Shown here: piece after piece, positions 1,316-17,457 of the stretch | Layout: each line of letters begins with the position of its first letter | Numbering within the stretch: position 1 is the stretch's first letter | DNA from: a virus | Lineage: Duplodnaviria; Heunggongvirae; Uroviricota; Caudoviricetes | IMG/VR virus record: IMGVR_UViG_2703718852_000001 | Direction: 5' to 3' (one strand) | DNA: 20,765 nucleotides | Program-made: the position numbers and the translations under genes | The notes under the pieces: generated by a model | What the model was told of the DNA's origin: nothing | The model's database searches: none | What the model saw: only the letters and a program-made list of their open reading frames with translations

Positions 1316-1334
1316 TAGTTAGTGTGGCTTTTAG

Positions 1335-1619
1335 TCAAGTAAGATGACGTCTTGGTCTCGCTGATGCCTGGCGCTCAATCCAGCGATCAATTTCTTCCAG
1401 GTTGTAAAAGCATGGACTGTTATCCCATGGCATACCGTCATGAGCGACATGCTTATATTCCCTTCCTTCCATAAACGATTTTTCCCGGGCCTTTTTTAAC
1501 GTACCTTTTTTTATTCCTTTCAGCGCAATTAACTGCTCTTCGGATACGCGGTGGAAGTGCTGCTGATGTCGAATCCTAGCGTGATGACTATGAAGCGGGA
1601 AAAACTCCGGTCGAAGCAT
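1335..1619 (-). CDS. Putative excisionase-like small protein (xis position), 94 aa or shorter
   Basis: ORF ends 19 nt upstream of the int start on the same strand, the slot xis occupies in lambdoid phages. Contains ..EGREYKHV.., reminiscent of the lambda Xis DGREY wing. Function is inferred; the true start may be an internal Met. Confidence 0.35.
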   Translation of the reverse strand: MLRPEFFPLHSHHARIRHQQHFHRVSEEQLIALKGIKKGTLKKAREKSFMEGREYKHVAHDGMPWDNSPCFYNLEEIDRWIERQASARPRRHLT

Positions 1620-1669
1620 ATTGTGATGAGTGGGGCGATGAATGAGCGAGATTAATTATCAGGAAGGGC

Positions 1670-1929
1670 ATGAAACGGCGGGGCAAGCAAAACCAGTGGC
1701 ATGGCGATATCGCTACGTGAAAAAAGGCGTTACGGACTTTCAGGGGAAGTAGTGGTCTGGTGACTGGAAATATGTACCGAAAAAAGAGGATTGTAACGAC
1801 AGGCCGAACTATCAAATTCAGGCCTTATTCACTGCCTCACCAGTCCCAGTTACATCAGAAGAACTGGTTAAAGCTGTGCACTTTTATGAACAACTAAAAC
1901 GCGAAAATCCACCAACATCCGGCAACTAG
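1670..1929 (+). pseudogene. Decayed gene remnant (serial frameshifts, no usable start for the longest frame)
   Basis: Three consecutive short open frames: ATG 1670 to TGA 1720, ATG 1701 to TGA 1763, and a start-less 58-codon frame 1753..1929 ending ..EELVKAVHFYEQLKRENPPTSGN. Consistent with a frameshifted pseudogene. Confidence 0.2.
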
Positions 1930-2183
1930 ATTAATGGATTAACTATGTCGGTTAAACGACCAGCCAACTGAAAAAGCGGAAACCTGATTACAGGTTGCCA
2001 GATAAGGCAATGAGCTACCTGGCGCGGAACGGACTGATAAGTATGGGGAATGTTTTACGATGAACCTTTAGACTAAAGAGTTTGTAACGCTATGTAAGTG
2101 ATTTTTTCTGGTTTAGATATTTATATGTCCGGCCAAATTGAGGTGTGTTTAAATGTAATTGCACATTGATTGTAGGAGGAATA

Positions 2184-2363
2184 ATGAAAAACGCATTGCA
2201 GTTTTTGTTTGTTGCGTTCTGGTTGTTCGCATCATGTATGCCCATCATCTTCACAGCAAGGTATATGGAAAAAGTTGATGTTTTGATATTAATATTTGGA
2301 TATATAAATGCCCTTTTTTTAGGGGTGTTCATGGCGGTCATGTGCATTGAATACTGGCGGTAA
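2184..2363 (+). CDS. Small hydrophobic (predicted two-helix membrane) protein, 59 aa
   Basis: Internal ATG at 2184 of track ORF 2145..2363, preceded by AGGAGG at 2174-2179. Translation MKNALQFLFVAFWLFASCMPIIFTARYMEKVDVLILIFGYINALFLGVFMAVMCIEYWR has two hydrophobic stretches. Lies in an AT-rich segment. Confidence 0.45.
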   Translation: MKNALQFLFVAFWLFASCMPIIFTARYMEKVDVLILIFGYINALFLGVFMAVMCIEYWR

Positions 2364-2559
2364 ATACAGCGAACTCCATTGGTTTAGTTGGATATTTACT
2401 GTGCTGGACAAAAACGGTTTGCGGGGAAATCTTAGTTAAGTAGAATGACTGCGGGTGCTTGAGGCTATCTGCCTCGGGCATGGACACCAACGGCAGATAG
2501 AGAAAAGCCCCAGTTAACATTACGCGTCCTGCAAGACGCTTAACATTAATCTGAGGCCA

Positions 2560-4260
2560 ATTTCATGCTAGACACATGTAGGTTAGCCTCTTACGTGCCG
2601 AAAGGCACGGAGAAGCAGGCTATTGTTAACACCAAGCTGTAATGTCCCCTTTGAACCATTCTAAAATGTCCCCAGACAATTCTCTGGGGGATTTTTCATG
2701 ATCAAAGAGACTGTTACGATGAGTCATAAGGAACTCCACCGACTTCAGATTATTCAGGAACAAGCTGCGGCACGCATTGGCATTTCTATTCGGCAGGTTA
2801 AACGTCTGGTGCAACGGTATAGAAATGAAGGGCCTTCTGGTCTGGTTTCCCACCGACGTGGAAAGCGTCCTAATAATTCCTTTTCTACTGAATTCAGAGC
2901 AACAGTAATTTCACTCCTCAAAGGCCGTTACGCTGATTTTGGACCTACGTTTGCGTGCGAAAAATTGCGCGAGATACACGGTTTATCTTTATCCGTTGAA
3001 ACTCTCAGAAAGTGGATGATAGAAGAGGGGTTATGGCGTGAACGCCGTCGTAAAATTGCCCGTATATATCAACGCCGCATGCGACGACCATCTTACGGTG
3101 AACTGATCCAGATTGATGGCTCACCTCATGACTGGTTTGAAAATCGAGGCCCCAGATGTACACTGATCGTTTTCATTGATGATGCCACCAGTGCGTTGAT
3201 GGCGTTGCGTTTTGTGCCTGCTGAAACAACCCGGGCTTACATGGAAACCCTCCGGGGTTACCTTAATGATCATGGCGTACCGCTCGCTCTCTACTCTGAT
3301 AGACACAGTATATTCAGGGTAAATAACCCAGAGCGGGAAGGTGAGCTGACCCAGTTCACTCGTGCGATAAAGACACTGGGCATCGAGCCAATCCATGCCA
3401 ACAGCCCGCAGGCAAAAGGGCGGGTAGAGCGCGCCAATCAGACACTACAGGACAGGCTGGTCAAAGAAATGCGGCTTCAGAATATCAGTGATATTGAAAC
3501 AGCAAATGCATGGTTGCCGACCTTTATTGAAGCCTATAACAACCGGTTCGCTACGTCGCCTCGTACTACTGATAATGCTCATCTTGATGTGCACCATTCT
3601 GAAGAGGAACTGGGTTATATCTTCAGCCTACAGGCGAAGCGCGTTCTGTCTAAAAATCTCACTTTCCAGTACAAAAGCAGTGCGTTTCAGGTACGCAGTG
3701 AGGGCCGGGGATATCGACTTAGGCATTCGGTTGTTACTGTATGCGAGAACTTTGACGGTGAAATTAACGTTCTGTATGACGGGAAAGCGCTGGGCTGGGA
3801 AAAGTATGTTGATGGCCCGGAGCCTATACCACTGGATGATGAAAAGAGTGTCCATGAACGAGTGGATAATGCCCGTATTGATTTACGCTCAAAATACTAT
3901 GTTAAACCTAAAGCTGACCATCCCTGGCTTACGCGCCGAACGCAAAGTCATCAGCAAGTTAAGCCCCCGAAGTTACCTAAAAAGAAGCCTGATCCCGATA
4001 AAAAAGATTGAAACCAAGATCGATTCGGTTGAGTGCATATCCATTCATAGGGTAGATTCTTAAGTCGCGTTTCTGGTGTTCATTTTCGGGTGGTTTGTTA
4101 CTTGTTTTACCGGGGATATGCCAGAAACGCGCTGAGTCAGTCTGGGCGGTGCGCGTAATGAGGCGTTATGGTAAATAGCCTATGCTAATGTCCGCTAAGA
4201 GCAAGAAGCGGAAGTTGGCAGTTTTGTGGACTGTCCCCACAAAAGTGACTACAGAAATAG
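2560..4260 (+). mobile_element. Insertion sequence carrying the IS481-like transposase; ends not resolved
   Basis: Single transposase ORF with flanking non-coding DNA; I could not identify convincing terminal inverted repeats or a target duplication by eye. Bounds are approximate. Confidence 0.3.
2698..4011 (+). CDS. DDE transposase, IS481-like (retroviral-integrase-type catalytic core), 437 aa
   Basis: Track ORF 2698..4011. N-terminal HTH region (..ISIRQVKRLVQRYRNEGPSGLVSHRRGKRP..) followed by DDE-type motifs (..QIDGSPHDW.., ..LYSDRHSIF.., ..ANSPQAKGRVERANQTL..), as in IS481/IS3-type transposases. Confidence 0.85.
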   Translation: MIKETVTMSHKELHRLQIIQEQAAARIGISIRQVKRLVQRYRNEGPSGLVSHRRGKRPNNSFSTEFRATVISLLKGRYADFGPTFACEKLREIHGLSLSVETLRKWMIEEGLWRERRRKIARIYQRRMRRPSYGELIQIDGSPHDWFENRGPRCTLIVFIDDATSALMALRFVPAETTRAYMETLRGYLNDHGVPLALYSDRHSIFRVNNPEREGELTQFTRAIKTLGIEPIHANSPQAKGRVERANQTLQDRLVKEMRLQNISDIETANAWLPTFIEAYNNRFATSPRTTDNAHLDVHHSEEELGYIFSLQAKRVLSKNLTFQYKSSAFQVRSEGRGYRLRHSVVTVCENFDGEINVLYDGKALGWEKYVDGPEPIPLDDEKSVHERVDNARIDLRSKYYVKPKADHPWLTRRTQSHQQVKPPKLPKKKPDPDKKD

Positions 4261-4404
4261 TTGCAATTCATAATTGATCATGGGTTGTCAGTTAAACTCG
4301 TGGCGATTTAAATAGACTAATTGGGAGTGCGTCCATTACTTATATCTTGTAATGTTAACTATCAGAAATGATACAAAGATAATATGTCTTTAAAGAAAAG
4401 GCTG

Positions 4405-4433
4405 ATGGCGAAAAGTGGCCCGATGAGGGCCAC
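4405..4433 (-). terminator. Intrinsic terminator downstream of flxA
   Basis: Perfect hairpin GTGGCCC-GATGA-GGGCCAC (4415-4433), followed on the minus strand by UUUUCGCC, 15 nt past the flxA stop. Confidence 0.5.
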
Positions 4434-4447
4434 AATACGGCTGTCAC

Positions 4448-4780
4448 TTAGACGTAAATATCAATGGTGCCAGCGGTATTTGTATCGTCTTTTTTCTCTT
4501 CTTTTTTATCAGGCTGAACTGTCGCGTCTTCATTCTTTTTCTCTGCCTGCTGCCTTAACAACTGCTCCAGTTGAGCCCAGAGGCTTTCAATTTGCTTCTG
4601 TACCAATGCAGCCATTTCTTTTTTCTGCTGTGTCGTCATCCCCTCTTCCGATGAGATTTTCCCAAGCTTTTCAGTCAGCACCTGAATTTGTCTTGTGATT
4701 TTGGCTATTTCTGATGTTCCTTCCGGGGCGGAGTTGTTTGAAATAACGGTTGAGGTATTTCCCTGAATTGTGACAGACAT
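4448..4780 (-). CDS. flxA: FlxA, FliA-regulated protein, 110 aa
   Basis: Track ORF 4448..4780 minus (MSVTIQGNTSTVISNN..., acidic/Lys-rich C-terminus). AAGGAG SD upstream; sigma-28 consensus promoter immediately upstream; synteny with ydfV-relBE as in Qin. Confidence 0.85.
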   Translation of the reverse strand: MSVTIQGNTSTVISNNSAPEGTSEIAKITRQIQVLTEKLGKISSEEGMTTQQKKEMAALVQKQIESLWAQLEQLLRQQAEKKNEDATVQPDKKEEKKDDTNTAGTIDIYV

Positions 4781-4803
4781 AGATTTCTCCTTTTAAAAAA
4801 GCA

Positions 4804-4830
4804 CTATCGGCATGCACAAAAAAATCTTTA
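4804..4830 (-). promoter_or_regulatory. Sigma-28 (FliA) class 3 flagellar-type promoter for flxA
   Basis: Minus strand reads TAAAGATT-N11-GCCGATAG, against the sigma-28 consensus TAAAGTTT-N11-GCCGATAA, positioned about 25-50 nt upstream of the flxA ATG. Confidence 0.6.
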
Positions 4831-4982
4831 ATCGTATTTCTTGTGTCATTAATTGTTTGATGTTCAGATTGTTTTCCTCGCGGGCTGGCGCGCCTCAGAA
4901 AGTAAAGCTTGTTGACAGGGGTAAACGTTCGGCAATAATTTTCTGCCGCATGCGGGTGTTGCATAAAACGTGTTACGTTCCT

Positions 4983-5288
4983 TTATCGACAGGTCAGGTC
5001 ACCGCTCACCCGCCGACGAGAAAGCAACACTGACATGCTAAAGCAAAAAATAGATGAATAAGTTGAGTTGTGCATATGTAGCCTGACCGTCACAAAGTAT
5101 ATGGTGTCTGTACCAGTAAGATGATGGCCGGACTCTTTAAAAACGAGCTGACCTGCACAATACAGGATGGACTTAGCAATGGCTGCTCCTGGCACAAAGC
5201 GGACAGTGATCACCGTTCTTACGACTACTTTCTGACTTCCTTCGTGACTTGCCCTAAGCATGTTGTAGTGCGATACTTGTAATGACAT
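4983..5288 (-). CDS. ydfV: Hypothetical protein (ydfV-like ORF), 101 aa; coding status doubtful
   Basis: Track ORF 4983..5288 minus. Its start codon lies inside the relBE operator palindrome, the sequence is low-complexity, and I saw no convincing SD. Confidence 0.3.
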   Translation of the reverse strand: MSLQVSHYNMLRASHEGSQKVVVRTVITVRFVPGAAIAKSILYCAGQLVFKESGHHLTGTDTIYFVTVRLHMHNSTYSSIFCFSMSVLLSRRRVSGDLTCR

Positions 5289-5301
5289 TTGTAATTACAA
5301 G
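5249..5301 (+). promoter_or_regulatory. relBE promoter and operator (relO)
   Basis: TTGCCC (5249-5254), 17-nt spacer, GATACT (5272-5277), overlapping the palindromic operator CTTGTAATGACATTTGTAATTACAAG (5276-5301) immediately upstream of relB. Confidence 0.7.
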
Positions 5302-5312
5302 AGGTGTAAGAC

Positions 5313-5552
5313 ATGGGTAGCATTAACCTGCGTATTGACGATGAACTTAAAGCGCGTTCTTACGCCGCGCTTGAAAAAATGGGTGTAACTCCTTCTGAAG
5401 CGCTTCGTCTCATGCTCGAGTATATCGCTGACAATGAACGCTTGCCGTTCAAACAGACACTCCTGAGTGATGAAGATGCTGAACTTGTGGAGATAGTGAA
5501 AGAACGGCTTCGTAATCCTAAGCCAGTACGTGTGACGCTGGATGAACTCTGA
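5313..5552 (+). CDS. relB: RelB antitoxin, 79 aa
   Basis: Translation MGSINLRIDDELKARSYAALEKMGVTPSEALRLMLEYIADNERLPFKQTLLSDEDAELVEIVKERLRNPKPVRVTLDEL recognised as RelB; stop overlaps the relE start (TGATG). Confidence 0.95.
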   Translation: MGSINLRIDDELKARSYAALEKMGVTPSEALRLMLEYIADNERLPFKQTLLSDEDAELVEIVKERLRNPKPVRVTLDEL

Positions 5553-5839
5553 TGGCGTATTTTCTGGATTTTGACGAGCGGGCACTAAAGGAATGGCGAA
5601 AGCTGGGCTCGACGGTACGTGAACAGTTGAAAAAGAAGCTGGTTGAAGTACTTGAGTCACCCCGGATTGAAGCAAACAAGCTCCGTGGTATGCCTGATTG
5701 TTACAAGATTAAGCTCCGGTCTTCAGGCTATCGCCTTGTATACCAGGTTATAGACGAGAAAGTTGTCGTTTTCGTGATTTCTGTTGGGAAAAGAGAACGC
5801 TCGGAAGTATATAGCGAGGCGGTCAAACGCATTCTCTGA
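5552..5839 (+). CDS. relE: RelE mRNA-interferase toxin, 95 aa
   Basis: Translation MAYFLDFDERALKEWRKLGSTVREQLKKKLVEVLESPRIEANKLRGMPDCYKIKLRSSGYRLVYQVIDEKVVVFVISVGKRERSEVYSEAVKRIL recognised as RelE; translationally coupled to relB. Confidence 0.95.
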   Translation: MAYFLDFDERALKEWRKLGSTVREQLKKKLVEVLESPRIEANKLRGMPDCYKIKLRSSGYRLVYQVIDEKVVVFVISVGKRERSEVYSEAVKRIL

Positions 5840-5910
5840 ACCAAAGCATGACATCTCTGTTTCGCACCGAAGGTGACACTTCTGCTTTGCGTTGACAGGA
5901 GAAGCAGGCT

Positions 5911-6066
5911 ATGAAGCAGCAAAAGGCGATGTTAATCGCCCTGATCGTCATCTGTTTAACCGTCATAGTGACGGCACTGGTAACGAGGAAAGACCTCTGC
6001 GAGGTACGAATCCGAACCGGCCAGACGGAGGTCGCTGTCTTCACAGCTTACGAACCTGAGGAGTAA
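5911..6066 (+). CDS. hokD: HokD (RelF) Hok-family membrane toxin, 51 aa
   Basis: ATG 5911 to TAA 6064-6066, translation MKQQKAMLIALIVICLTVIVTALVTRKDLCEVRIRTGQTEVAVFTAYEPEE. Not in the ORF track (below 60 aa). Directly downstream of relE. Confidence 0.9.
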   Translation: MKQQKAMLIALIVICLTVIVTALVTRKDLCEVRIRTGQTEVAVFTAYEPEE

Positions 6067-6134
6067 GAGACCCGGCGGGGGAGAAATCCCTCGCCACCTC
6101 TGATGTGGCAGGCATCCTCAACGCACCCGCACTT

Positions 6135-6165
6135 AACCCGCTTCGGCGGGTTTTTGTTTTTATTT
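6135..6165 (+). terminator. Intrinsic terminator after hokD
   Basis: Hairpin CCCGC-TTCG-GCGGG (6137-6150) followed by TTTTTGTTTTTATTTT. Confidence 0.6.
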
Positions 6166-6282
6166 TCAACGCGTTTGAAGTTCTGGACGGTGCCGGAATA
6201 GAATCAAAAATACTTAAGTAGCGCGCAGGGATAAGAGGGATGGTCCCTTAAAGGGGAGAGCTAATTATCCGGAAGGATTCTG

Positions 6283-6534
6283 ATGATGAACATCGAAGAA
6301 CTGCGTAAAATTTTTTGTGAAGATGGCCTCTATGCTGTGTGCGTTGAAAATGGAAATCTTGTTAGTCATTACCGCATTATGTGTTTGCGAAAGAATGGGG
6401 CTGCGTTAATTAATTTTGTGGATGCTCGGGTCACGGACGGATTTATCTTGCGCGAAGGTGAGTTTGTCACTTCATTACAGGCATTGAAAGAGATCGGAAT
6501 AAAAGCTGGCTTTTCTGCTTTTTCAGGAGAATAA
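6283..6534 (+). CDS. rem: Rem, small prophage protein, 83 aa
   Basis: Track ORF 6283..6534 (MMNIEELRKIFCEDGLYAVCVENGNLVSHYRIM...); GGAAGGA SD; synteny between hokD and ydfU as in Qin. Confidence 0.8.
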   Translation: MMNIEELRKIFCEDGLYAVCVENGNLVSHYRIMCLRKNGAALINFVDARVTDGFILREGEFVTSLQALKEIGIKAGFSAFSGE

Positions 6535-6600
6535 ACTCATCTACAATCTTGCGCGGGGCTGAACTCCCGCTGAGTAACACCGTGCCACCGGAGAAAACCG

Positions 6601-6879
6601 ATGGCACGCAACGCAAAATATTACAATTCTGATAATTCGCCCGTTCTTGCCTGCACGCACGGGCGGTATTCTCACGCATTCAAGTCTGAATGGTTCCAGC
6701 ACCCTCCATGCACTGCAGAACAGGCCGAATGGCTGATTCATTCTTACCGCAGGCGCGGGTTCGAGGTTAAGAAAGCTCTCAGTCTCGACTATCGGCACTG
6801 GATAATCTCTGTCAGGCTGCCTTATTCCGAACGCCCACCACGTGCGTCCCGCACTTTCCAGCAACGGATCTGGAGGTAA
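6601..6879 (+). CDS. Hypothetical protein, 92 aa, translationally coupled to ydfU
   Basis: Track ORF 6601..6879 with GGAG SD at 6590-6593 (7-nt spacing). Its TAA stop (6877-6879) is 1 nt before the ydfU GTG start and the ydfU GGAGG SD lies within its last codons. Cys/His-containing (..ACTHGRYSHAFKSEWFQHPPCTAEQ..). Not a gene I recognise. Confidence 0.5.
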   Translation: MARNAKYYNSDNSPVLACTHGRYSHAFKSEWFQHPPCTAEQAEWLIHSYRRRGFEVKKALSLDYRHWIISVRLPYSERPPRASRTFQQRIWR

Positions 6880-6880
6880 C

Positions 6881-7930
6881 GTGCGGGTATTACTTAGACC
6901 TGTTCTGGTGCCTGAGCTTGGGCTGGTGGTCCTTAAGCCGGGCCGTGAATCCATACAGATATTTCATAATCCTCGAGTGCTGGTGGAACCGGAACCAAAA
7001 AGCATGCGTAATCTGCCATCCGGAGTCGTTCCTGCCGTTCGCCAGCCGCTGGCGGAAGACAAAACATTGCTGCCGTTTTTTAGTAACGAACGGGTGATTC
7101 GTGCTGCTGGCGGCGTTGGCGCATTGTCCGACTGGCTATTACGTCATGTTACATCCTGCCAGTGGCCTAATGGCGATTACCATCACACTGAAACAGTCAT
7201 TCACCGTTATGGTACCGGCGCAATGGTGTTGTGCTGGCACTGCGACAACCAACTGCGTGACCAGACATCGGAATCACTGGAGCTGCTTGCTCAACAAAAT
7301 CTGACAGCATGGGTGATTGACGTCATCCGTCACGCAATAAGCGGTACGCAGGAGCGGGAATTATCTTTGGCTGAATTATCCTGGTGGGCGGTCTGCAATC
7401 AGGTGGTGGATGCACTACCTGAGGCTGTATCGCGTCGTTCGCTGGGATTACCAGCGGAAAAAATCTGCTCGGTGTACCGCGAAAGCGACATCGTACCGGG
7501 AGAGCAGACCGCCACCAGCATATTGAAACAACGCACAAAAAATCTTGCACCGTTGCCTTACGCCCACCAGCAACAAAAATCACCACAGGAAAAGACGGTG
7601 GTAAGCATCACCGTTGATCCAGAGTCTCCGGAATCTTTCATGAAGCTGCCTAAACGTCGCCGCTGGGTTAAGGAGAAATACACACGTTGGGTTAAGACAC
7701 AGCCGTGTGCTTGCTGCGGTATGCCAGCCGACGATCCGCATCATCTGATTGGTCACGGGCAGGGCGGAATGGGAACAAAAGCACATGATCTCTTTGTGTT
7801 GCCTTTGTGCAGAAAGCATCACAACGAGCTGCATACGGATACAGTGGCATTTGAAGATAAGTATGGCTCCCAACTGGAGCTGATATTTCGTTTTATCGAT
7901 CGCGCGCTGACAATTGGCGTACTGGCGTAA
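6881..7930 (+). CDS. ydfU: YdfU, DUF968 family protein with C-terminal Cys/His (HNH-like) motif, 349 aa from GTG 6881
   Basis: Track ORF 6842..7930. GTG at 6881 preceded by GGAGG (6872-6876) gives 349 aa. C-terminus ..CACCGMPADDPHHLIGHGQGG...LCRKHHNELH.. Alternative start GTG 6842. Confidence 0.8.
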   Translation: MRVLLRPVLVPELGLVVLKPGRESIQIFHNPRVLVEPEPKSMRNLPSGVVPAVRQPLAEDKTLLPFFSNERVIRAAGGVGALSDWLLRHVTSCQWPNGDYHHTETVIHRYGTGAMVLCWHCDNQLRDQTSESLELLAQQNLTAWVIDVIRHAISGTQERELSLAELSWWAVCNQVVDALPEAVSRRSLGLPAEKICSVYRESDIVPGEQTATSILKQRTKNLAPLPYAHQQQKSPQEKTVVSITVDPESPESFMKLPKRRRWVKEKYTRWVKTQPCACCGMPADDPHHLIGHGQGGMGTKAHDLFVLPLCRKHHNELHTDTVAFEDKYGSQLELIFRFIDRALTIGVLA

Positions 7931-7943
7931 GTGGAGAACGAGC

Positions 7944-8696
7944 ATGAACCTTGAAGCCTTACCAAAATATTACTCCCCAAAATCTCCAAAATTGAGCGAT
8001 GACGCTCCAGCGACAGGCACCGGTTGTTTAACAATTACGGATGTAATGGCAGCGCAGGGGATGGTGCAGTCGAAAGCACCACTTGGGTTGGCCTTATTTC
8101 TGGCAAAAGTTGGTGTTCAGGACCCTCAGTTTGCGATTGAAGGCCTGCTAAATTACGCGATGGCACTGGATAACCCGACATTGAACAAATTGAGTGAAGA
8201 AATCCGGTTACAGATTATTCCTTACCTCGTGAGTTTTGCCTTTGCTGATTACTCCAGGTCTGCGGCAAGTAAGGCTCGCTGTGAGCATTGTTCAGGTACG
8301 GGATTTTATAATGTATTGCGCGAAGTGGTGAAACACTACAGACGCGGGGAATCTGTAATCAAGGAAGAATGGGTGAAGGAACTATGTCAGCATTGCCATG
8401 GTAAGGGCGAAGCCAGCACAGCGTGCAGAGGGTGTAAGGGTAAAGGGATTGTTCTGGATGAAAAAAGAACCCGGTTTCATGGCGTACCGGTATATAAGAT
8501 TTGTGGGCGTTGTAATGGAAACCGGTTTAGTCGTTTACCGACCACGCTGGCACGACGTCATGTCCAGAAGCTGGTACCAGACCTGACCGATTATCAGTGG
8601 TATAAGGGGTATGCGGACGTCATTGGTAAACTGGTAACAAAGTGCTGGCAGGAAGAAGCATACGCGGAAGCGCAATTGAGGAAGGTGACGAGATAA
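7944..8696 (+). CDS. quuQ: Late-gene antiterminator Q homolog, 250 aa
   Basis: Track ORF 7914..8696; ATG at 7944 with GGAG SD (7933-7936) gives 250 aa. Cys-rich zinc-finger-like region (..CEHCSGTG..CQHCHGKGE..CRGCKGKG..CGRCNGN..). Immediately followed by a strong promoter and a terminator (pR'/tR' arrangement). Confidence 0.85.
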   Translation: MNLEALPKYYSPKSPKLSDDAPATGTGCLTITDVMAAQGMVQSKAPLGLALFLAKVGVQDPQFAIEGLLNYAMALDNPTLNKLSEEIRLQIIPYLVSFAFADYSRSAASKARCEHCSGTGFYNVLREVVKHYRRGESVIKEEWVKELCQHCHGKGEASTACRGCKGKGIVLDEKRTRFHGVPVYKICGRCNGNRFSRLPTTLARRHVQKLVPDLTDYQWYKGYADVIGKLVTKCWQEEAYAEAQLRKVTR

Positions 8697-8728
8697 ATGA
8701 TTTTTGCTGAAGATGGCGACATGATGTT

Positions 8729-8757
8729 TGCATTTTTCAAAAAATATGGATAAAATT
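8729..8757 (+). promoter_or_regulatory. Candidate late promoter pR' (sigma-70)
   Basis: TTGCAT (8729-8734), 17-nt spacer, TAAAAT (8752-8757), 33 nt downstream of the Q stop. Confidence 0.55.
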
Positions 8758-8801
8758 TTTTCAACGATGGGCTTTGTATACCCGACGTTAAGAAAAAGTA
8801 G

Positions 8802-8830
8802 AAAACCCGCTGATGAGCGGGTTTTGTGCT
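8802..8830 (+). terminator. Candidate tR' terminator
   Basis: Hairpin AAAACCCGC-TGATGAG-CGGGTTTT followed by GTGCTTT, about 45-65 nt downstream of the predicted pR' start. Confidence 0.5.
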
Positions 8831-8973
8831 TTAAATGGGGCAATGGTAATGTTGAATCTCATCCCGGGACTCATGTCTGTTAACTTATTATTTAGCTGGT
8901 GACTTGGTTATTTGCCTGATGTTTAAAATGTTTTCTTCCAGTACAATGTCCCTAAACACAATGAGTCTGCTTA

Positions 8974-9063
8974 TTATATTATTAGCAGAGCTATTACGGC
9001 CAAAGTACAGCATAAGCTTTTAAAGCCAATCAACCAGTCATCAAGACAGACGGGGTTATTCAT
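8974..9063 (-). CDS. Candidate 29-aa hydrophobic peptide ORF downstream of cspF
   Basis: Minus-strand ATG at 9063 preceded by GGAGAG (plus 9069-9074) with 5-nt spacer; translation [29 protein letters not shown], then tandem TAA stops. Below the ORF-track size cut-off. Confidence 0.25.
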
Positions 9064-9117
9064 AAAAACTCTCCATGTGTGATCCGATGGGGCCTGAAAT
9101 TAAAGCTTTAATATAGC

Positions 9118-9330
9118 TCATGAAAGGTAAACATTGGCAGCTGAAGGGCCACGCAGACCATTTATCCGGCAAAATTCCACGCGTAATCCGGTGGTAATTT
9201 CTTCTGCATCGCGGAGATTGAGCGCTGAAACATGAAGCTGGACATCGATACGACCATCGGATGGGGTGATAAGACCCTTGCCGCTTTTGCCGTCAAAGGT
9301 TTTGACAATTCCTGTCATTTTACGGGACAA
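9118..9330 (-). CDS. cspF: Cold-shock protein family member CspF, 70 aa
   Basis: Translation [70 protein letters not shown] recognised as CspF. Confidence 0.95.
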
Positions 9331-9433
9331 AAAAATTCCTTAATACTGATAACTTGGCGCACTATACACACGTTCCTGAAGAAAGCTATAGTTTTTTGAT
9401 GGGGTTGAAGATGGCTGGATGTCTAAAATAAAC

Positions 9434-9463
9434 ATTGCTTCATATGTTCAACTATGCGTTAAT
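9434..9463 (+). promoter_or_regulatory. cspB promoter (cspA-like) preceding an approximately 160-nt 5' UTR
   Basis: TTGCTT (9434-9439), 18-nt spacer, TTAATG (9458-9463). The same ATGCGTTAATG block recurs upstream of cspI. UTR contains GCCGAAAGGC near the RBS, as in cspA. Confidence 0.45.
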
Positions 9464-9630
9464 GATTGCGTCGGTTTGAAGAACAGACGATATACGAAGT
9501 AGTTTACTAAAGCAGTTCTCATTTCAGGTGTTATTCACTTATTCCTTCTTTGAGTCTCTCCAATTAAGTACGAAGTCGTTTCTGTTATGCAAACCATTTA
9601 TGCCGAAAGGCTCAAGTTAAGGAATGTAGA

Positions 9631-9846
9631 ATGTCAAATAAAATGACTGGTTTAGTAAAATGGTTTAACGCTGATAAAGGTTTCGGCTTTATTTCTCCTG
9701 TTGATGGTAGTAAAGATGTGTTTGTGCATTTTTCTGCGATTCAGAATGATAATTATCGAACCTTATTTGAAGGTCAAAAGGTTACCTTCTCTATAGAGAG
9801 TGGTGCTAAAGGTCCTGCAGCAGCAAATGTCATCATTACTGATTAA
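9631..9846 (+). CDS. cspB: Cold-shock protein CspB, 71 aa
   Basis: Translation [71 protein letters not shown] with RNP1/RNP2 motifs (KGFGFI, VFVHF). Confidence 0.95.
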
Positions 9847-9957
9847 AATTCATCGCTCGTCTGTATACGATAACGAAGAAGGCTGATGCCTGAGTAGAGA
9901 TACGGACAGAGTAGTGAATATTGGATCTCTTTAATAAAAAGTAAGGAGGTCCAATAC

Positions 9958-9993
9958 ATGAAACAATGGCTAGCATATTTGGCAAAATCTTAA
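9958..9993 (+). CDS. Candidate 11-codon mini-ORF with near-perfect SD
   Basis: TAAGGAGGT (9942-9950), 7-nt spacer, ATG 9958; translation MKQWLAYLAKS, stop TAA 9991-9993. Between cspB and the downstream terminator. Confidence 0.3.
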   Translation: MKQWLAYLAKS

Positions 9994-10127
9994 TCAGGAA
10001 AAGTATGCTAACCATTGTGGTGAAGTGCAGGTTTGCTGCATGAATAGTTTTACAGCAGAAGCTAACTGCTGGCATGGCAAAACAAAGTGCGTAAGTGGAT
10101 GACTCCCACAAAAAGCACCACAATCTC

Positions 10128-10152
10128 AAACCCGCTCAGGCGGGTTTTTTAT
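10128..10152 (+). terminator. Hairpin terminator between convergent cspB and the zinc-ribbon gene
   Basis: CCCGC-TCAG-GCGGG followed by TTTTTT (10131-10150). Bidirectional function is plausible but only a short T-run follows on the other strand. Confidence 0.5.
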
Positions 10153-10209
10153 TATCTGCTTTAAATATATTATTAAAATATAAAAAATACTTGTTACTAA
10201 TAAAATCAA

Positions 10210-10380
10210 TCAGGCTACAGCTTTAAGATTTGTCTGGAATACTTTGTTGCAATGAGGGCAGATCAAAAGGGCACCTTTTTGTACTCTTGAAAAACTGTGT
10301 TCTGACTCTTGGGTGCAGTTTGGGCAGGAACATTTAACGAGATAATTACGGCGTGATTTTGAGTTTTTACGTTCTGACAT
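10210..10380 (-). CDS. ynfU: Small zinc-ribbon protein (CxCxxC...CxxC), 56 aa
   Basis: Internal ATG (10380) of track ORF 10210..10431, preceded by AGGAAA SD; translation MSERKNSKSRRNYLVKCSCPNCTQESEHSFSRVQKGALLICPHCNKVFQTNLKAVA. Symbol is from memory of the K-12 small-protein annotation and is not certain. Confidence 0.55.
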   Translation of the reverse strand: MSERKNSKSRRNYLVKCSCPNCTQESEHSFSRVQKGALLICPHCNKVFQTNLKAVA

Positions 10381-10599
10381 AGGCTTTTCCTGTATAAATG
10401 GCCGTATACAGTACACTAAATATGAAAACATTTCTCGTATTATTATTTTATATATGACTTTCTTTCAAAATAATTACCCACATTTTTAATGTGTATGTTT
10501 TTTTAGCGCCGTTGAGAACAACGTGTGCTGTCAAAACTACCCCGTAGACTCCGATCTTTTCAAACATATTGCACCATCCGTGTACATCGGGGTGAGGAT

Positions 10600-10815
10600 A
10601 TGAAATCAATGGATAAGTTAACAACAGGTGTTGCCTATGGCACATCGGCGGGTAATGCTGGTTTCTGGGCATTGCAGTTACTCGATAAAGTAACTCCGTC
10701 ACAGTGGGCTGCAATCGGTGTGCTGGGTAGCCTGGTTTTTGGCCTGCTGACGTATCTGACAAATCTTTATTTCAAGATTAAAGAAGACAGGCGTAAGGCT
10801 GCGAGAGGAGAGTAA
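10600..10815 (+). CDS. essQ: Holin (phage 21 S-type pinholin), 71 aa, dual-start motif
   Basis: ATG 10600 preceded by GGTGAGGA; translation [71 protein letters not shown] resembles the phage 21 pinholin. MKSM-DKL gives a holin/antiholin dual start. Track ORF extends upstream to 10525. Confidence 0.85.
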
Positions 10816-10819
10816 TCCA

Positions 10820-11127
10820 ATGACTCAAGACTATGAACTGGTTGTGAAAGGAGTCCGTAATTTTGAGAATAAAGTTACGGTAACTGTAGCCTTACAGGAC
10901 AAAGAACGCTTTGACGGTGAAATTTTTGACCTGGATGTCGCCATGGACCGTGTTGAAGGAGCTGCGCTGGAGTTTTATGAGGCAGCAGCCAGAAGGAGCG
11001 TCCGGCAAGTCTTCCTGGAAGTAGCAGAAAAATTGTCAGAAAAAGTTGAGTCTTATCTGCAGCATCAGTACTCCTTTAAGATTGAAAATCCTGCCAATAA
11101 GCACGAGCGTCCTCATCATAAATATCT

Positions 11128-11131
<4 letters not shown>
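10820..11131 (+). CDS. ydfR: YdfR, DUF1327-type prophage protein, 103 aa
   Basis: Track ORF 10820..11131, between holin and endolysin; start 5 nt after the essQ stop with GAGAGGAGAG SD. Confidence 0.75.
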
Positions 11132-12155
<1,024 letters not shown>

Positions 12156-12337
12156 GGTAATATTAAATCGGAACATTTACATCGCGGAATGTAAAATTTA
12201 AATAAAAAGGACTCTTCCATGAGCCAAAATTCCTGAAATCTTAAGGGTAAGATAAAAGGTCTTAATCAGAATGACACGTTTTATTAATAAATAAAGCTAT
12301 TCTTTCATTGCTGTGTTTTTCTTTACAAAAGTAATCC

Positions 12338-12367
12338 TTGCTATGGGTGGTTAATCATGCGTTAATG
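12338..12367 (+). promoter_or_regulatory. cspI promoter preceding an approximately 145-nt 5' UTR
   Basis: TTGCTA (12338-12343), 18-nt spacer, TTAATG (12362-12367); shares the ATGCGTTAATG block with the cspB promoter. Confidence 0.45.
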
Positions 12368-12517
12368 GTGTTCTGGTTTGTTACAAATTTATCTGAAGCA
12401 GTCATTGTTATAATTTTATTATTTGTACCTCTTGAGATTTCCTTGTTGGTTTTTCTCTCTGATATTTTTTTTCGGACCATTCTGCCCAAGGGCTAATTTC
12501 TTCAAAAGGTAATAATT

Positions 12518-12730
12518 ATGTCTAACAAAATGACTGGTTTAGTGAAATGGTTTAACCCTGAAAAAGGTTTTGGTTTCATCACGCCGAAAGATGGCAGCAA
12601 AGATGTGTTTGTCCATTTCTCAGCAATTCAGAGCAACGATTTCAAAACATTAACTGAGAATCAGGAAGTTGAATTTGGTATTGAGAACGGACCTAAAGGT
12701 CCTGCCGCTGTTCATGTAGTGGCGCTTTGA
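12518..12730 (+). CDS. cspI: Cold-shock protein CspI, 70 aa
   Basis: Translation [70 protein letters not shown] recognised as CspI. Confidence 0.95.
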
Positions 12731-12929
12731 GGTAGACAATATTACAAACCATATTCACTTTAGATGCCCGTGTTGTCATGGTTCCCAGTATAGAACATCA
12801 TCTTTTGATGTTTCTGACATGAATCCTTTCGGGGCAAAATGTATCTTTTGTAAATCAATGATGATTACATTTGATAATATTTCACAATACTTAAATGCCA
12901 GCCGTCTGTCGTTGGATTTAAAAAAGTGA
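12720..12929 (+). pseudogene. Start-less zinc-ribbon ORF, paralog of the 10210-10380 protein; probably frameshifted
   Basis: Open frame ..HIHFRCPCCHGSQYRTSSFDVSDMNPFGAKCIFCKSMMITFDNISQYLNASRLSLDLKK ending TGA 12927-12929. No ATG/GTG/TTG precedes the first Cys pair. An ATG at 12764 is out of frame by 1 nt at a CCC run. The CxC(x)C...CxxC spacing aligns with the 10210-10380 protein. Confidence 0.35.
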
Positions 12930-13076
12930 AAATGAAGGCTCCTTCGGGAGCTTTTTTGCTTGGTGTCTATTCGATGGATACTCACATACTACGGTAACAT
13001 CATGAAAAAAATCATAGTTTTTTTTAACTCTGAACCAGCAGTGGTAGTGCCAGCGATGACTGGAGTTAACACCATC

Positions 13077-13232
13077 ATGCGTGAATATCCAAATGGCGAA
13101 AAAACACACCTTACTGTAATGGCCGCAGGGTTTCCATCTCTGACCGGAGATCATAAAGTCATTTATGTAGCCGCGGATCGACATGTTACTTCAGAAGAAA
13201 TTCTGGAAGCAGCAATAAGGCTCTTGAGTTGA
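13077..13232 (+). CDS. ynfN: YnfN, small cold-shock-induced prophage protein, 51 aa
   Basis: Track ORF 12960..13232. The 51-aa form starts at ATG 13077 (MREYPNGEKTHLTVMAAGFPSLTGDHKVIYVAADRHVTSEEILEAAIRLLS). Alternative upstream starts at 13056 and 13002; none has a strong SD. Confidence 0.5.
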   Translation: MREYPNGEKTHLTVMAAGFPSLTGDHKVIYVAADRHVTSEEILEAAIRLLS

Positions 13233-13403
13233 TTTGATGCTATTGCATTGATAATTCAGGAAAATTCTCTTTGTCTGTTTGTGTAAAATTTAGACTATCG
13301 TATGTTGATTATTGCGATGTTTCATCTTATCTTTTACACGTTTGCACCATATAATCGACTTACTGTGTAACTGGAAAGTCATAACAGACTAAAAGAGGAA
13401 ATG

Positions 13404-13577
13404 ATGAATATTGAAAACTTAAAAACAAAAGCAGAAGCAGATATTTCTGAATATATAACAAAAAAAATTATTGAACTTAAGAAAAAGACCGGGAAAGAAG
13501 TTACCAGTATTCAGTTTACCGCACGGGAAAAAATGACGGGTCTTGAAAGCTATGATGTCAAGATTAATTTAATCTGA
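13404..13577 (+). CDS. gnsB: GnsA/GnsB family protein, 57 aa
   Basis: ATG 13404 (SD GAGGA at 13394-13398) to TGA 13575-13577; translation MNIENLKTKAEADISEYITKKIIELKKKTGKEVTSIQFTAREKMTGLESYDVKINLI. Below the ORF-track cut-off. Confidence 0.75.
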   Translation: MNIENLKTKAEADISEYITKKIIELKKKTGKEVTSIQFTAREKMTGLESYDVKINLI

Positions 13578-13596
13578 TGTATTCAATAATAAAATT

Positions 13597-13628
13597 TATC
13601 CATAAACCTCGTTTTTACGGGGTTTTGT
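13597..13628 (+). terminator. Probable terminator after gnsB
   Basis: Imperfect hairpin CCTCGT-TTTT-ACGGGG followed by TTTTGTTA. Confidence 0.35.
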
Positions 13629-13728
13629 TATATTTGAATGGTTCCGAATATCTAAATCACAATTGTTGATGGTTTTTATTAAACCAATGCAGTCCGGCTC
13701 AGGAGTGAGAGAAGCCGGACGTTATGGT

Positions 13729-14139
13729 TTAGCGTGGTAAGATCTGTGTAGTTTTCTGGATGCTTTCAGTAAATAGTAATGAATTATCAAAGGTATAGTA
13801 ATATCTTTTTTGTTCGTGGATATTTGTAACCCACCGAAAAACTCCTGCTTTAGCAAGGTTTCTTCTGTATTCCTGAAATGTGATCTCTCTGGATTTCAGC
13901 TTATTAGAGGTCGTTTCTATAAGATGCCTATCCTTTGAAAATTTGACAGACACAATGTTTTTTAGGCCCTTTAATAACACTGTATTATCATTTTTTAATA
14001 CAATATGAACATTCTCTGTGGCTAAATAGTAAATGTAATGTGAGACATTGTGACGTTTTAGCTCAGAATAAAACCATTGATAGTTTAAATCGTTTCGAAC
14101 TTTATCAAATATTTGTTTAAAAATGACTACCTGATCCAT
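13729..14139 (-). CDS. ydfO: YdfO, DUF1398 family protein, 136 aa
   Basis: Track ORF 13729..14154; internal ATG 14139 preceded by GGAAGG SD gives 136 aa ([23 protein letters not shown]...). Hairpin GTCCGGCT...AGCCGGAC (13692-13720) just past the stop. Confidence 0.8.
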
Positions 14140-14196
14140 AGATAAACCTTCCATGTGATATGAGGGGGCGTAGTCTGCACGATTATCTAAATTGCT

Positions 14197-14430
14197 TCAA
14201 TCTGGTCTGACCTGTTTTCTGAGCAATTCAGTAATGTCACTCTTTTCTTTGTTTGCTTCAGAAGAAACTCTTTTTTCTGAGCACAGTCTCCGGCGGCAGG
14301 CTTCAATGACCCAGGCTGAGAAATTCCCGGACCCTTTTTGCTCAAGAGCGATGTTAATTTGTTCAATCATTTGGTTAGGAAAGCGGATGTTGCGGGTTGT
14401 TGTTCTGCGGGTTCTGTTCTTCGTTGACAT
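14197..14430 (-). CDS. ynfO: YnfO, small protein with ribbon-helix-helix-like N-terminal region, 77 aa
   Basis: Track ORF 14197..14430. ..TRNIRFPNQMIEQINIALEQKGSGNFSAWVIEACRRRL.. has a beta-strand/helix/helix pattern typical of Arc/CopG RHH DNA-binding proteins (inference). Confidence 0.7.
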   Translation of the reverse strand: MSTKNRTRRTTTRNIRFPNQMIEQINIALEQKGSGNFSAWVIEACRRRLCSEKRVSSEANKEKSDITELLRKQVRPD

Positions 14431-14559
14431 GAGGTTGCCCCGTATTCAGTGTCGCTGATTTGTATTGTCTGAAGTTGTTTTTACGTTAAGTTGATGCAGA
14501 TCAATTAATATGATACCTGCGTCATAATTGATTATTTGACGTGGTTTGATGGCGTAGAT

Positions 14560-14818
14560 GCACGTTGTGACATGCAGATGATAATTATTATCATTTTGCG
14601 GGTCCTTTCCGGCGATCCGACAGGTTACGGGGCGGCGACCTCGCGGGTTTTCGCTATTTATGAAAATTTTCCGGTTTAAGGCATTTCCGTTCTTCTTCGT
14701 CGTAACTTAATGTTTTTATTTAAAATACCCCCTGAAAAGAAAGGAAACGACAGGTGCTGAAAACGAGCTTTTGGGCCTCTGTCGTTTCCTTTCTCTGTTT
14801 TTGGCCGTGGAATGAACA

Positions 14819-14820
<2 letters not shown>
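14560..14820 (+). other. Lambda-type cos site (cosQ, cosN, cosB region)
   Basis: ..CCGACAGGTTACG GGGCGGCGACCT CGCGGGTTTTCGCTATTTATGAAAATTTTCCGGTTTAAGG.. matches my memory of the lambda genome ends: the 12-nt cohesive end GGGCGGCGACCT lies at 14630-14641, right-end sequence to its left and the left-end cosB region leading into the Nu1 start (ATGGAAGTCAAC at 14819) to its right. Confidence 0.8.
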
Positions 14821-15969
<1,149 letters not shown>

Positions 15970-15979
15970 GTTATACGAG

Positions 15980-16882
15980 GTGTATAACAACGGATATCCA
16001 ACAGCGTATGGAAATATCATTCACCTGAAAGGGATGACAGCCGTTGGCGAAGGTGAGTTACTCATCGGCTGGAGTGGTACAAGCGGTGCTCATGCTCCGG
16101 CATTTATTCGTTCACGACGGGATACGACCGACGCAAACTGGTCGCCGTGGGCGCAGCTTTACACCTCGGCTCATCCTCCTGCAGAGTTTTATCCAGTCGG
16201 TGCACCAATCCCGTGGCCATCAGATACCGTTCCGTCTGGTTATGCCCTGATGCAGGGGCAGACTTTTGACAAATCTGCATACCCGAAACTTGCAGTTGCT
16301 TATCCGTCAGGCGTGATCCCTGATATGCGTGGCTGGACGATTAAGGGCAAGCCCGCCAGTGGTCGGGCCGTATTATCTCAGGAACAGGACGGCATTAAAT
16401 CGCACACCCACAGCGCCAGCGCATCCAGTACGGATTTGGGGACGAAAACCACATCGTCGTTTGATTACGGAACCAAATCCACGAATAACACCGGGGCGCA
16501 TACCCATAGTATTAGCGGGACCGCAAATAGTGCCGGTGCGCACCAACACAAGAGTTCCGGTGCATTTGGTGGCACGAACACGAGCATTTTCCCTAATGGT
16601 TATACCGCGATTTCAAATCTAAGCGCGGGGATTATGAGCACAACAAGCGGTAGTGGCCAGACTCGTAATGCAGGGAAGACATCATCAGATGGTGCTCATA
16701 CCCACTCGCTGTCCGGCACTGCTGCAAGCGCAGGCGCACATGCACATACTGTCGGTATTGGTGCTCATACGCACTCCGTTGCGATTGGTTCACATGGACA
16801 CACCATCACCGTTAACGCTGCTGGTAACGCGGAAAACACCGTCAAAAACATCGCATTTAACTATATTGTGAGGCTTGCATAA
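15980..16882 (+). CDS. stfQ: Side tail fibre protein, C-terminal portion (GTG start), 300 aa
   Basis: Track ORF 15980..16882. ..[37 protein letters not shown]...GAHTHS repeats...[24 protein letters not shown] matches the lambda Stf C-terminus as I remember it. In-frame TAG at 15917 limits upstream extension. Confidence 0.8.
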
Positions 16883-17457
16883 TGGCATTCAGAATGAGTG
16901 AACAACCACGGACCATAAAAATTTATAATCTGCTGGCCGGAACTAATGAATTTATTGGTGAAGGTGATGCATATATTCCGCCTCATACAGGTCTGCCAGC
17001 AAACAGTACCGATATTGCACCGCCAGATATTCCGGCTGGCTTCGTGGCTGTTTTCAACAGTGATGAGTCATCGTGGCATCTCGTTGAAGATCATCGGGGT
17101 AAAACGGTTTATGACGTGGCTTCCGGCGACGCGTTATTTATTTCTGAACTCGGTCCGTTACCGGAAAATGTTACCTGGTTATCGCCGGAAGGGGAGTTTC
17201 AGAAGTGGAACGGCACAGCCTGGGTGAAGGATACGGAAGCAGAAAAACTGTTCCGGATCCGGGAGGCGGAAGAAACAAAAAACAACCTGATGCAGGTAGC
17301 CAGTGAGCATATTGCGCCGCTTCAGGATGCTGCAGATCTGGAAATTGCAACGGAGGAAGAAATCTCGTTGCTGGAAGCATGGAAAAAGTATCGGGTATTG
17401 CTGAACCGTGTTGATACGTCAACTGCACAGGATATTGAATGGCCAGCACTGCCGTAG
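16882..17457 (+). CDS. tfaQ: Tail fibre assembly protein Tfa, 191 aa
   Basis: Track ORF 16882..17457; ATGA overlap with the stf stop; Tfa-like sequence ([28 protein letters not shown]...). Confidence 0.9.

Follow-up and report, generated by a model that had tools for sequence, protein, structure and literature searches.

A lambda-type cos sequence beside a slightly shortened nu1 gene in a Qin-family defective prophage of Escherichia coli

We analysed a stretch of viral DNA of 20,765 nucleotides (hereafter the window), in which a packaging site stands next to a damaged terminase gene. With high confidence, the best explanation is that this is the packaging site of a Qin-family defective prophage together with a nohA-type Nu1 gene cut off at codon 169 by an illegitimate deletion of about 16.5 kb, i.e. 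a relic with a cos sequence of a working type and of lambda specificity. The cos site appears intact as far as its sequence goes, and is predicted to have lambda packaging specificity. That a relic site is still intact might reflect a recent deletion, or a region refreshed by recombination with live phages; we found no evidence of host selection for it. As such, the arrangement belongs to the standard biology of E. coli K-12, and prophage remnants of this ordinary type have been described before. It corresponds to the cos-nohA pair already known from Qin, although its deletion end point is unlike that of K-12, and it recurs throughout E. coli.

The cos site and its counterparts in lambda and PhiR42_1

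An earlier note on this DNA had picked out by eye a 12-nt cohesive end with cosQ- and cosB-like flanks. The cohesive end proved to be an exact GGGCGGCGACCT on the + strand (Table 1), the sole exact copy in the window, where about 0.64 matches with up to two mismatches would be expected by chance. The flanks were likewise borne out, as they hold a complete cosQ, cosN, I2, R3, an IHF-like site, R2 and R1, and then the Nu1 start codon. Window positions 14300-15500 were aligned to lambda (NC_001416), with its right end joined to its left, a comparison of the kind which the earlier note had proposed. In this alignment homology is collinear from lambda 48173 through the cohesive end to bp ~697. Leftward, homology starts at window 14268, so that it covers 362 bp on the left side and about 700 bp on the right side of cos.

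A 238-bp insert, lambda 48446-182, has been stated to hold cosQ, cosN and cosB (PMC4856287). Its equivalent, window 14573-14810, is enclosed by the 14560-14830 stretch of the earlier note and shows 12 differences from lambda (11 substitutions and one 1-bp deletion). None of them falls in cosQ, cosN, I2, the R3 contact bases 55-63, R2 or R1, while one, G54A, lies beside the contact bases.

Table 1. Coordinates of the cos subsites, of the variants relative to lambda and of the deletion junctions
Feature	Window position	Strand	Lambda position	Remarks
cosQ heptamer GGGTCCT	14600-14606	+	48473-48479 (which we take to be its exact coordinates)	same nick distance as in lambda and N15
cosN nicking site	14628-14643	+		cohesive end at 14630-14641
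Predicted cosN nicks	14629/14630 (top), 14641/14642 (bottom)			
I2, AT-rich cosN-cosB spacer	14647-14679	+	18-50	identical to lambda
R3, cosN-proximal Nu1 binding site	14681-14696	+		contact bases lambda 55-63 = 14684-14692; one variant, G54A at 14683
I1, IHF-like predicted site between R3 and R2	14703-14720	-		pattern match only
R2, Nu1 binding site, inverted	14738-14753	-		AGAAAGGAAACGACAG, identical to lambda
R1, Nu1 binding site	14779-14794	+		CTGTCGTTTCCTTTCT, identical to lambda
cos variant	14575		48448	substitution
cos variant	14586		48459	substitution
cos variant	14594		48467	substitution
cos variant	14598		48471	substitution
cos variant	14613		48486	substitution
cos variant	14683		54	G to A (G54A)
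cos variant	14702		73	substitution
cos variant	14731		102	substitution
cos variant	14763		134	substitution
cos variant	between R2 and R1		G138	1-bp deletion
cos variant	14773		145	substitution
cos variant	14804		176	substitution
nohA-type Nu1 remnant ORF	14819-15439	+		206 aa
Deletion junction, Nu1 codon 169 :: J codon 576	15324-15325	+		2-bp TA microhomology
Internal J fragment	15324-15928	+		lambda J residues 576-776; tblastn 97.5% identity over 201 aa; Pfam Ig_J domains
Second junction, J fragment :: 3' part of side tail fibre gene (stf)	15926-15928			GTA microhomology

The cosQ element, 7 bp long and highly conserved (PMC4669245), is embedded in TTTnCGGGTCCTTTCCGG, which is conserved at an equal nick distance also in the distant phage N15. 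The cosN site includes two symmetric flanking bp on each side of the cohesive end (PMC9026076, Fig. 1 legend); together with I2, whose extent we took from PMC4856287, it is spanned by window 14614-14682, which is 100% identical to lambda 48487-53. As I2 has neither insertions nor deletions relative to lambda, the critical cosN-R3 spacing is unchanged. Bases 55-63 of R3, TTTCCGTTC, are also identical to lambda; it is here that TerS probably makes its base contacts, bp 56, 58 and 59 being critical (PMC9026076). In I1 two overlapping matches to WATCAANNNNTTR, with 1 and 2 mismatches, were found on the bottom strand, and the variants at 14702 and 14731 lie outside both, while R1 and R2 form an inverted repeat, as expected. 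The window thus has all the parts of a lambda-type cos: cosN, cosQ at the lambda distance, a cosB with R3 spacing and bp 56/58/59 as in lambda, a putative IHF site, an inverted R2 and a direct R1. A promoter and terminator scan of 14100-15000 gave chance-level matches only. Phage records annotate a small “hypothetical protein” ORF across cosQ and cosN (window 14536-14679; PhiR42_1 locus 3237-3380); since maturation cuts the DNA within it, this ORF is almost certainly an error of gene calling.

The complete lambdoid genome of phage PhiR42_1 (PV340562.1), which has a Qin-like late region, matches window 11300-15329 over 4,030 bp with 0 mismatches and one 1-bp gap. The shared stretch holds rrrQ/rzpQ-cspI-gnsB-ydfO-ynfO-cos-Nu1, with the two cos sites identical over -120 to +260, and it stops at 15329, at the deletion junction of the window. 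PhiR42_1 goes on with a full-length Nu1, A, W, B and other structural genes, whereas the window breaks at Nu1 codon 169. Our literature search found no publication on PhiR42_1, and its viability rests on the GenBank record, in which a complete genome is described and a host is named. From the identity to the cos of PhiR42_1 we infer that the window site could be cleaved and packaged by lambda terminase.

One might still ask whether the likeness to lambda is fortuitous or the site degenerate, given twelve differences in 238 bp, one of them beside the R3 contact bases. We see next to no chance of this, as the differences miss every one of the subsites named above, the collinear homology exceeds 1 kb and a complete phage genome carries the identical site; the idea is refuted by these three comparisons.

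The G54A substitution is common to the window, K-12 Qin and PhiR42_1. It is rare in deposited phages: among the matches listed, PhiR42_1 is the sole full-length 100% match, and three records reach at least 99%. The change affects a G common to R1, R2 and R3, the base directly 5' of the contact segment in R3, and it is conceivable that it causes a mild cosB defect. The other variants, including the 1-bp deletion, occur in several deposited phages, e.g. Kati, 2H10 and PhiR34_1, and the deletion of lambda G138 is found also in K-12 Qin and in all four other phages compared. Among these sequences lambda is the outlier at all cos variant positions except G54A.

The shortened Nu1 and the Qin locus

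The earlier note had described Nu1 as truncated to its DNA-binding domain, with gpA and all head genes absent. The gene is indeed truncated, but only slightly. When the translation was compared with lambda Nu1 and K-12 NohA, residues 1-169 of 181 were found to be kept, with 3 substitutions vs lambda, after which J DNA, in another frame, supplies 37 more. What remains covers the full Pfam Phage_Nu1 model (1-164 of 164, E=3.6e-101), and RefSeq names the identical gene “terminase small subunit”, so the description as a DNA-binding domain only is not tenable. The last ~40 residues of TerS are the TerL (gpA)-binding domain (PMC9026076); of this tail only the last 12 residues (170-181) are lost, 37 unrelated ones standing in their place.

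The absence of gpA and of all head genes was confirmed. The likeness to lambda Nu1 extends to 15325 and that to J begins at 15324, so that J codons 576-776 follow directly. The deletion, ~16.5 kb or lambda-equivalent 699-17228, took away A, W, B, C, Nu3, D, E, FI, FII, Z, U, V, G, T, H, M, L, K, I and the 5' half of J, and no gene for a large terminase subunit, a portal or a capsid is listed in the RefSeq annotation of an identical prophage, that of E. coli LR-58-1. From 15926 the DNA is homologous to stf of intact phages. K-12 (Nu1 176::stf'; L002, about 4841-4859) and the window (J 776::stf') share the stf breakpoint GTA/ACCGCGCTGAC, which is also marked at 26192 of the strain MLI105 locus, while their left junctions differ; no single deletion converts the K-12 form to the window form or the reverse. 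The shared breakpoint may mark a hot spot of deletion or have arisen by coincidence. A crossover by a Pin-type invertase at this point was considered and rejected, the likeness to a hix/gix half-site (by eye) being weak and offset from the junction.

As the remnant keeps complete DNA-binding and oligomerisation regions and has lost only those 12 residues of a TerL-binding domain that comprises the C-terminal 40 residues of TerS (PMC9026076), an anti-phage role might be imagined, in which a small subunit with a changed C-terminus either spoils terminase oligomers or blocks cosB, or in which the chromosomal cos titrates terminase. The Rpp proteins of satellites, TerS relatives without that tail, block phage packaging (PMC6739421). 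However, the prophage is silent, the gene comes last in a late operon that depends on Q, and expression of the remnant is putative. Moreover, it is a 30-residue loss that has been reported to weaken gpA binding (PMC9026076), whereas 12 residues are lost here. Finally, NohA of K-12 ends at residue 176 and Nu1 of MLI105 is intact, so there is no conserved truncated form of the kind expected of a selected inhibitor. We therefore regard an anti-phage role as extremely unlikely, and return to a deletion relic as the preferred reading.

Judged by its genes and flanks, the window is a Qin-family defective lambdoid prophage reaching from rspB to ydfJ: it is inserted between rspB/ynfP and ydfJ and carries the Qin gene set (relBE, hokD, ydfU, ydfT, cspB/F/I, ess, rrrQ, rzpQ, gnsB, ydfO, ynfO, nohA, tfaQ, pinQ, ydfK). 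E. coli LR-58-1 matches it at 100% identity, in two pieces, with the order rspB-int-xis...ydfT(Q)-ess-rrrQ-rzpQ-cspI-gnsB-ydfO-ynfO-[cos]-terminase small subunit-J'-tail'-tfaQ-pinQ-ydfK-ydfJ. Rightward of cos the order is Nu1', J', stf', tfaQ, pinQ, ydfK and ydfJ, then ydfI, dcp, marRAB, the lsr operon and hipBA. The element measures ~19.5 kb, and the annotation of the identical prophage lists no genes for replication. The LR-58-1 prophage has 4.5 kb extra (L001, 2048-6553), with an exonuclease gene, ydfD, dicB and adjacent pseudogenes, which are missing at window 1545-1547; since it is otherwise 100% identical, the window derives from a further-deleted relative.

K-12 Qin occupies the same rspB/ydfJ locus with the same flanking genes and is 99.9% identical to the window (99.87% DNA identity over window 3827-15329). 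The K-12 gene adjoining cos is nohA, “putative prophage DNA-packaging protein” (b1548, “Nu one homolog”). Its cosN and cosB are identical to those of the window, including G54A, and so is Nu1 over residues 1-169. K-12 Nu1, however, runs to residue 176 and is fused straight to stf', whereas in the window Nu1 ends at 169 and is followed by a 600-bp J fragment. The two also differ at the left end, where the window has intact reading frames for the integrase (20-1315) and excisionase (1335-1619), both on the - strand and named site-specific integrase and excisionase by RefSeq, unlike K-12 intQ, a pseudogene interrupted by IS2. Window 1545-3827, including an ORF at 2698-4011 (+), has no K-12 Qin counterpart and contains pseudogenes as well as a partial transposase gene of the ISNCY family; in its place K-12 has ydfX-dicC-dicA-ydfABC-dicF-dicB-ydfD-ydfE and IS2E, of which dicB and ydfD are still present in LR-58-1. 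As this stretch replaces the K-12 dic block, the dicA/dicC immunity region is absent from the window, as is the rest of the dicA-dicB region.

Over 11.5 kb the comparison of the window with K-12 Qin gave 15 listed differences, the last of which is an end-of-alignment artefact, leaving 14 real ones. Eleven of these 14 lie within 14511-14613, the 103 bp directly left of cosN, where K-12 agrees with lambda and the window agrees with PhiR42_1 and other environmental phages. Right of cosN, K-12 agrees with the window at every site that separates the window from lambda, and at six sites in 14268-14299 it does so likewise, unlike lambda. The exchanged tract is therefore 103-383 bp long, with its right boundary in 14614-14682, the segment that holds cosN. 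It abuts cosN on the side that terminase leaves unprotected when it cuts (PMC3945230), a position compatible with recombination stimulated by cos, though no proof of it. Wild isolates carry the K-12-type mosaic too, and an origin of the lambda-like tract from K-12's own lambda prophage, as a K-12-specific event, is not supported, as the same mosaic occurs at 100% identity in the human isolate G1/2 and 584 records reach at least 99%.

Decay at this locus has taken at least three forms, all of which keep cos: Nu1(176)::stf' in K-12, Nu1(169)::J'::stf' in the window, and in MLI105 an intact nohA with gpA fused to lom'. At the MLI105 locus (L013, NZ_CP116929.1, 21145-24006) the cos is identical, nohA is intact at 181 aa, and the large terminase subunit, of nearly full length, is fused to part of lom, after which a full-length tail fibre gene follows; this locus represents a third, independent decay path retaining cos. 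That cos and most of Nu1 are kept in three independent deletion architectures could hint at selection.

What a helper terminase might do at the relic site

In lambda, Nu1 and IHF assemble on cosB, gpA nicks cosN, the terminase stays on the cosB end and translocation proceeds in the Nu1-to-J direction (PMC4669245, PMC9026076). Packaging needs cosN and cosB to start, and a downstream cosQ and cosN to terminate (PMC4669245). By its sequence, the window site should be recognisable to any helper of lambda-type specificity, and its cutting by a helper terminase is plausible and has published precedents; a helper enzyme could probably cut it. The course of events may be pictured as follows. A phage with a lambda-type Nu1/gpA would grow in the cell, its Nu1 and IHF would assemble on R3-I1-R2-R1, and gpA would nick at 14629/14630 and 14641/14642. 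This would leave a chromosomal double-strand break, whose free left (cosQ) end would be recombinogenic. The terminase-bound right end would then be threaded into a prohead in the + direction, from Nu1' towards ydfJ. Packaging could not terminate normally, as a second cosQ-cosN is missing over one genome length downstream and the element, at ~19.5 kb, lacks replication genes. Realistically, one would expect an exchange of markers with the helper and no more than rare, defective particles packaged from a single cos.

The earlier note had speculated that cleavage in trans by a superinfecting helper might permit packaging or transduction of adjacent chromosomal DNA. Productive packaging of this kind is not supported, for it requires a second cosQ-cosN (PMC4669245), and none was found within 49 kb downstream in the genome with the identical prophage, where a search gave four 2-mismatch matches only, vs 3.4 expected by chance. 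Having no replication module, the element also cannot form the concatemers that the terminase needs. For both reasons efficient helper-dependent transduction of flanking DNA is unlikely. Packaging from a single cos yields defective “doc” particles in low numbers.

It is rather doubtful, though conceivable, that in nature the relic cos is cut by lambda-type terminases of co-resident or infecting phages and so serves both as a fixed point on the chromosome at which recombination enters and as the start of one-directional packaging of the ydfJ-marRAB-lsr-hipBA flank. The tract exchanged between K-12 and the window left of cosN is a possible footprint of such cutting. If true, this would be a cos-phage counterpart of lateral transduction.

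A further step would be to assume that cos has been kept by selection as a mobilisation device, with the prophage or the right-hand chromosome hitch-hiking in capsids of a lambda-type helper, in the manner of a satellite or of a cos-type lateral transduction origin. On one hand, the functional cos subsites are sequence-perfect, the integrase and excisionase ORFs are intact here, unlike in K-12, and cos is kept in all three of the deletion forms known from the locus. In O157, prophages with a defective terminase undergo packaging in trans (PMC2669165), and lambda-type Nu1/cos sequences, a rough proxy for potential helpers, are found in 5,225 of the 5,426 complete E. coli genomes. On the other hand, termination would lack its second cos over those same 49 kb, and the element is far under lambda head capacity and has no replication module. 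The cosB is of the ordinary phage type, which allows no preferential packaging of the satellite kind (PMC6739421), and 0 mismatches to a live phage over 4 kb leave no time for detectable selection. We thus find selection for mobilisation very unlikely, and a relic of deletion remains the reading that we prefer.

Occurrence in E. coli and comparison with known systems

Lambda-type cos sequences occur in 4,591 of the 5,426 complete E. coli genomes (~85%); among the genomes with at least one, the median number is two. Taken alone, the window site is of little import, as the Qin cos-nohA and the equivalent cos-nohD remnant of DLP12 have long been annotated in E. coli K-12. The region is said to have been recognised for decades, as reflected in the lambda qin recombinants of Espion (1983) and in the “noh” (Nu one homolog) names. 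It may serve, however, as a reminder that defective prophages retain cis-acting sites which are usable by live phages.

The Gram-negative phage-inducible chromosomal islands, such as EcCICFT073, have a lambda-like cosQ and cosN and a TerS relative without the normal C-terminal tail, as here (PMC6739421, PMC9026076). Those islands possess their own distinct cosB, an Rpp that redirects the helper TerS, and the means of excision and replication, whereas the window has an ordinary phage cosB and Nu1 DNA-binding domain. It carries neither its own replication module, nor a distinct cosB, nor a redirecting TerS-like Rpp. Because of the phage-type cosB and Nu1 DNA-binding region, and as it has no replication module, the window element is, judged by its gene content, not a phage satellite.

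With lambda itself the window shares the same subsites in the same order and orientation, the cosN-R3 spacing, the cohesive end, and a Nu1 DNA-binding region that is identical through residue 47; it differs by the 12 changes in the 238-bp cos, the missing gpA and a Nu1 without residues 170-181. Prophage Sp4 of O157 Sakai, in which nu1 is disrupted, is packaged most likely by the terminase of Sp14, whose cos is identical (PMC2669165). The likeness to the window lies in a lambdoid prophage without a working terminase of its own, the cos of which is that of a terminase-proficient relative (PMC2669165). Yet Sp4 has nearly its full length, is able to excise and owes its amplification to a neighbouring prophage, whereas the window element, at ~19.5 kb, has no head or replication genes. 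Along with Sp4, the transfer by lambda and phi80 of plasmids into which cos has been cloned (PMC6739421) is a direct precedent for terminase supplied in trans, and the cos of DLP12 raises recombination with infecting lambda, half of the junctions adjoining cos (PMC3945230). In the window, too, a terminase cut would give a chromosomal break and a hot spot of phage-prophage exchange, feeding lambdoid mosaicism, and such exchange is already in the literature for DLP12 and the O157 prophages.
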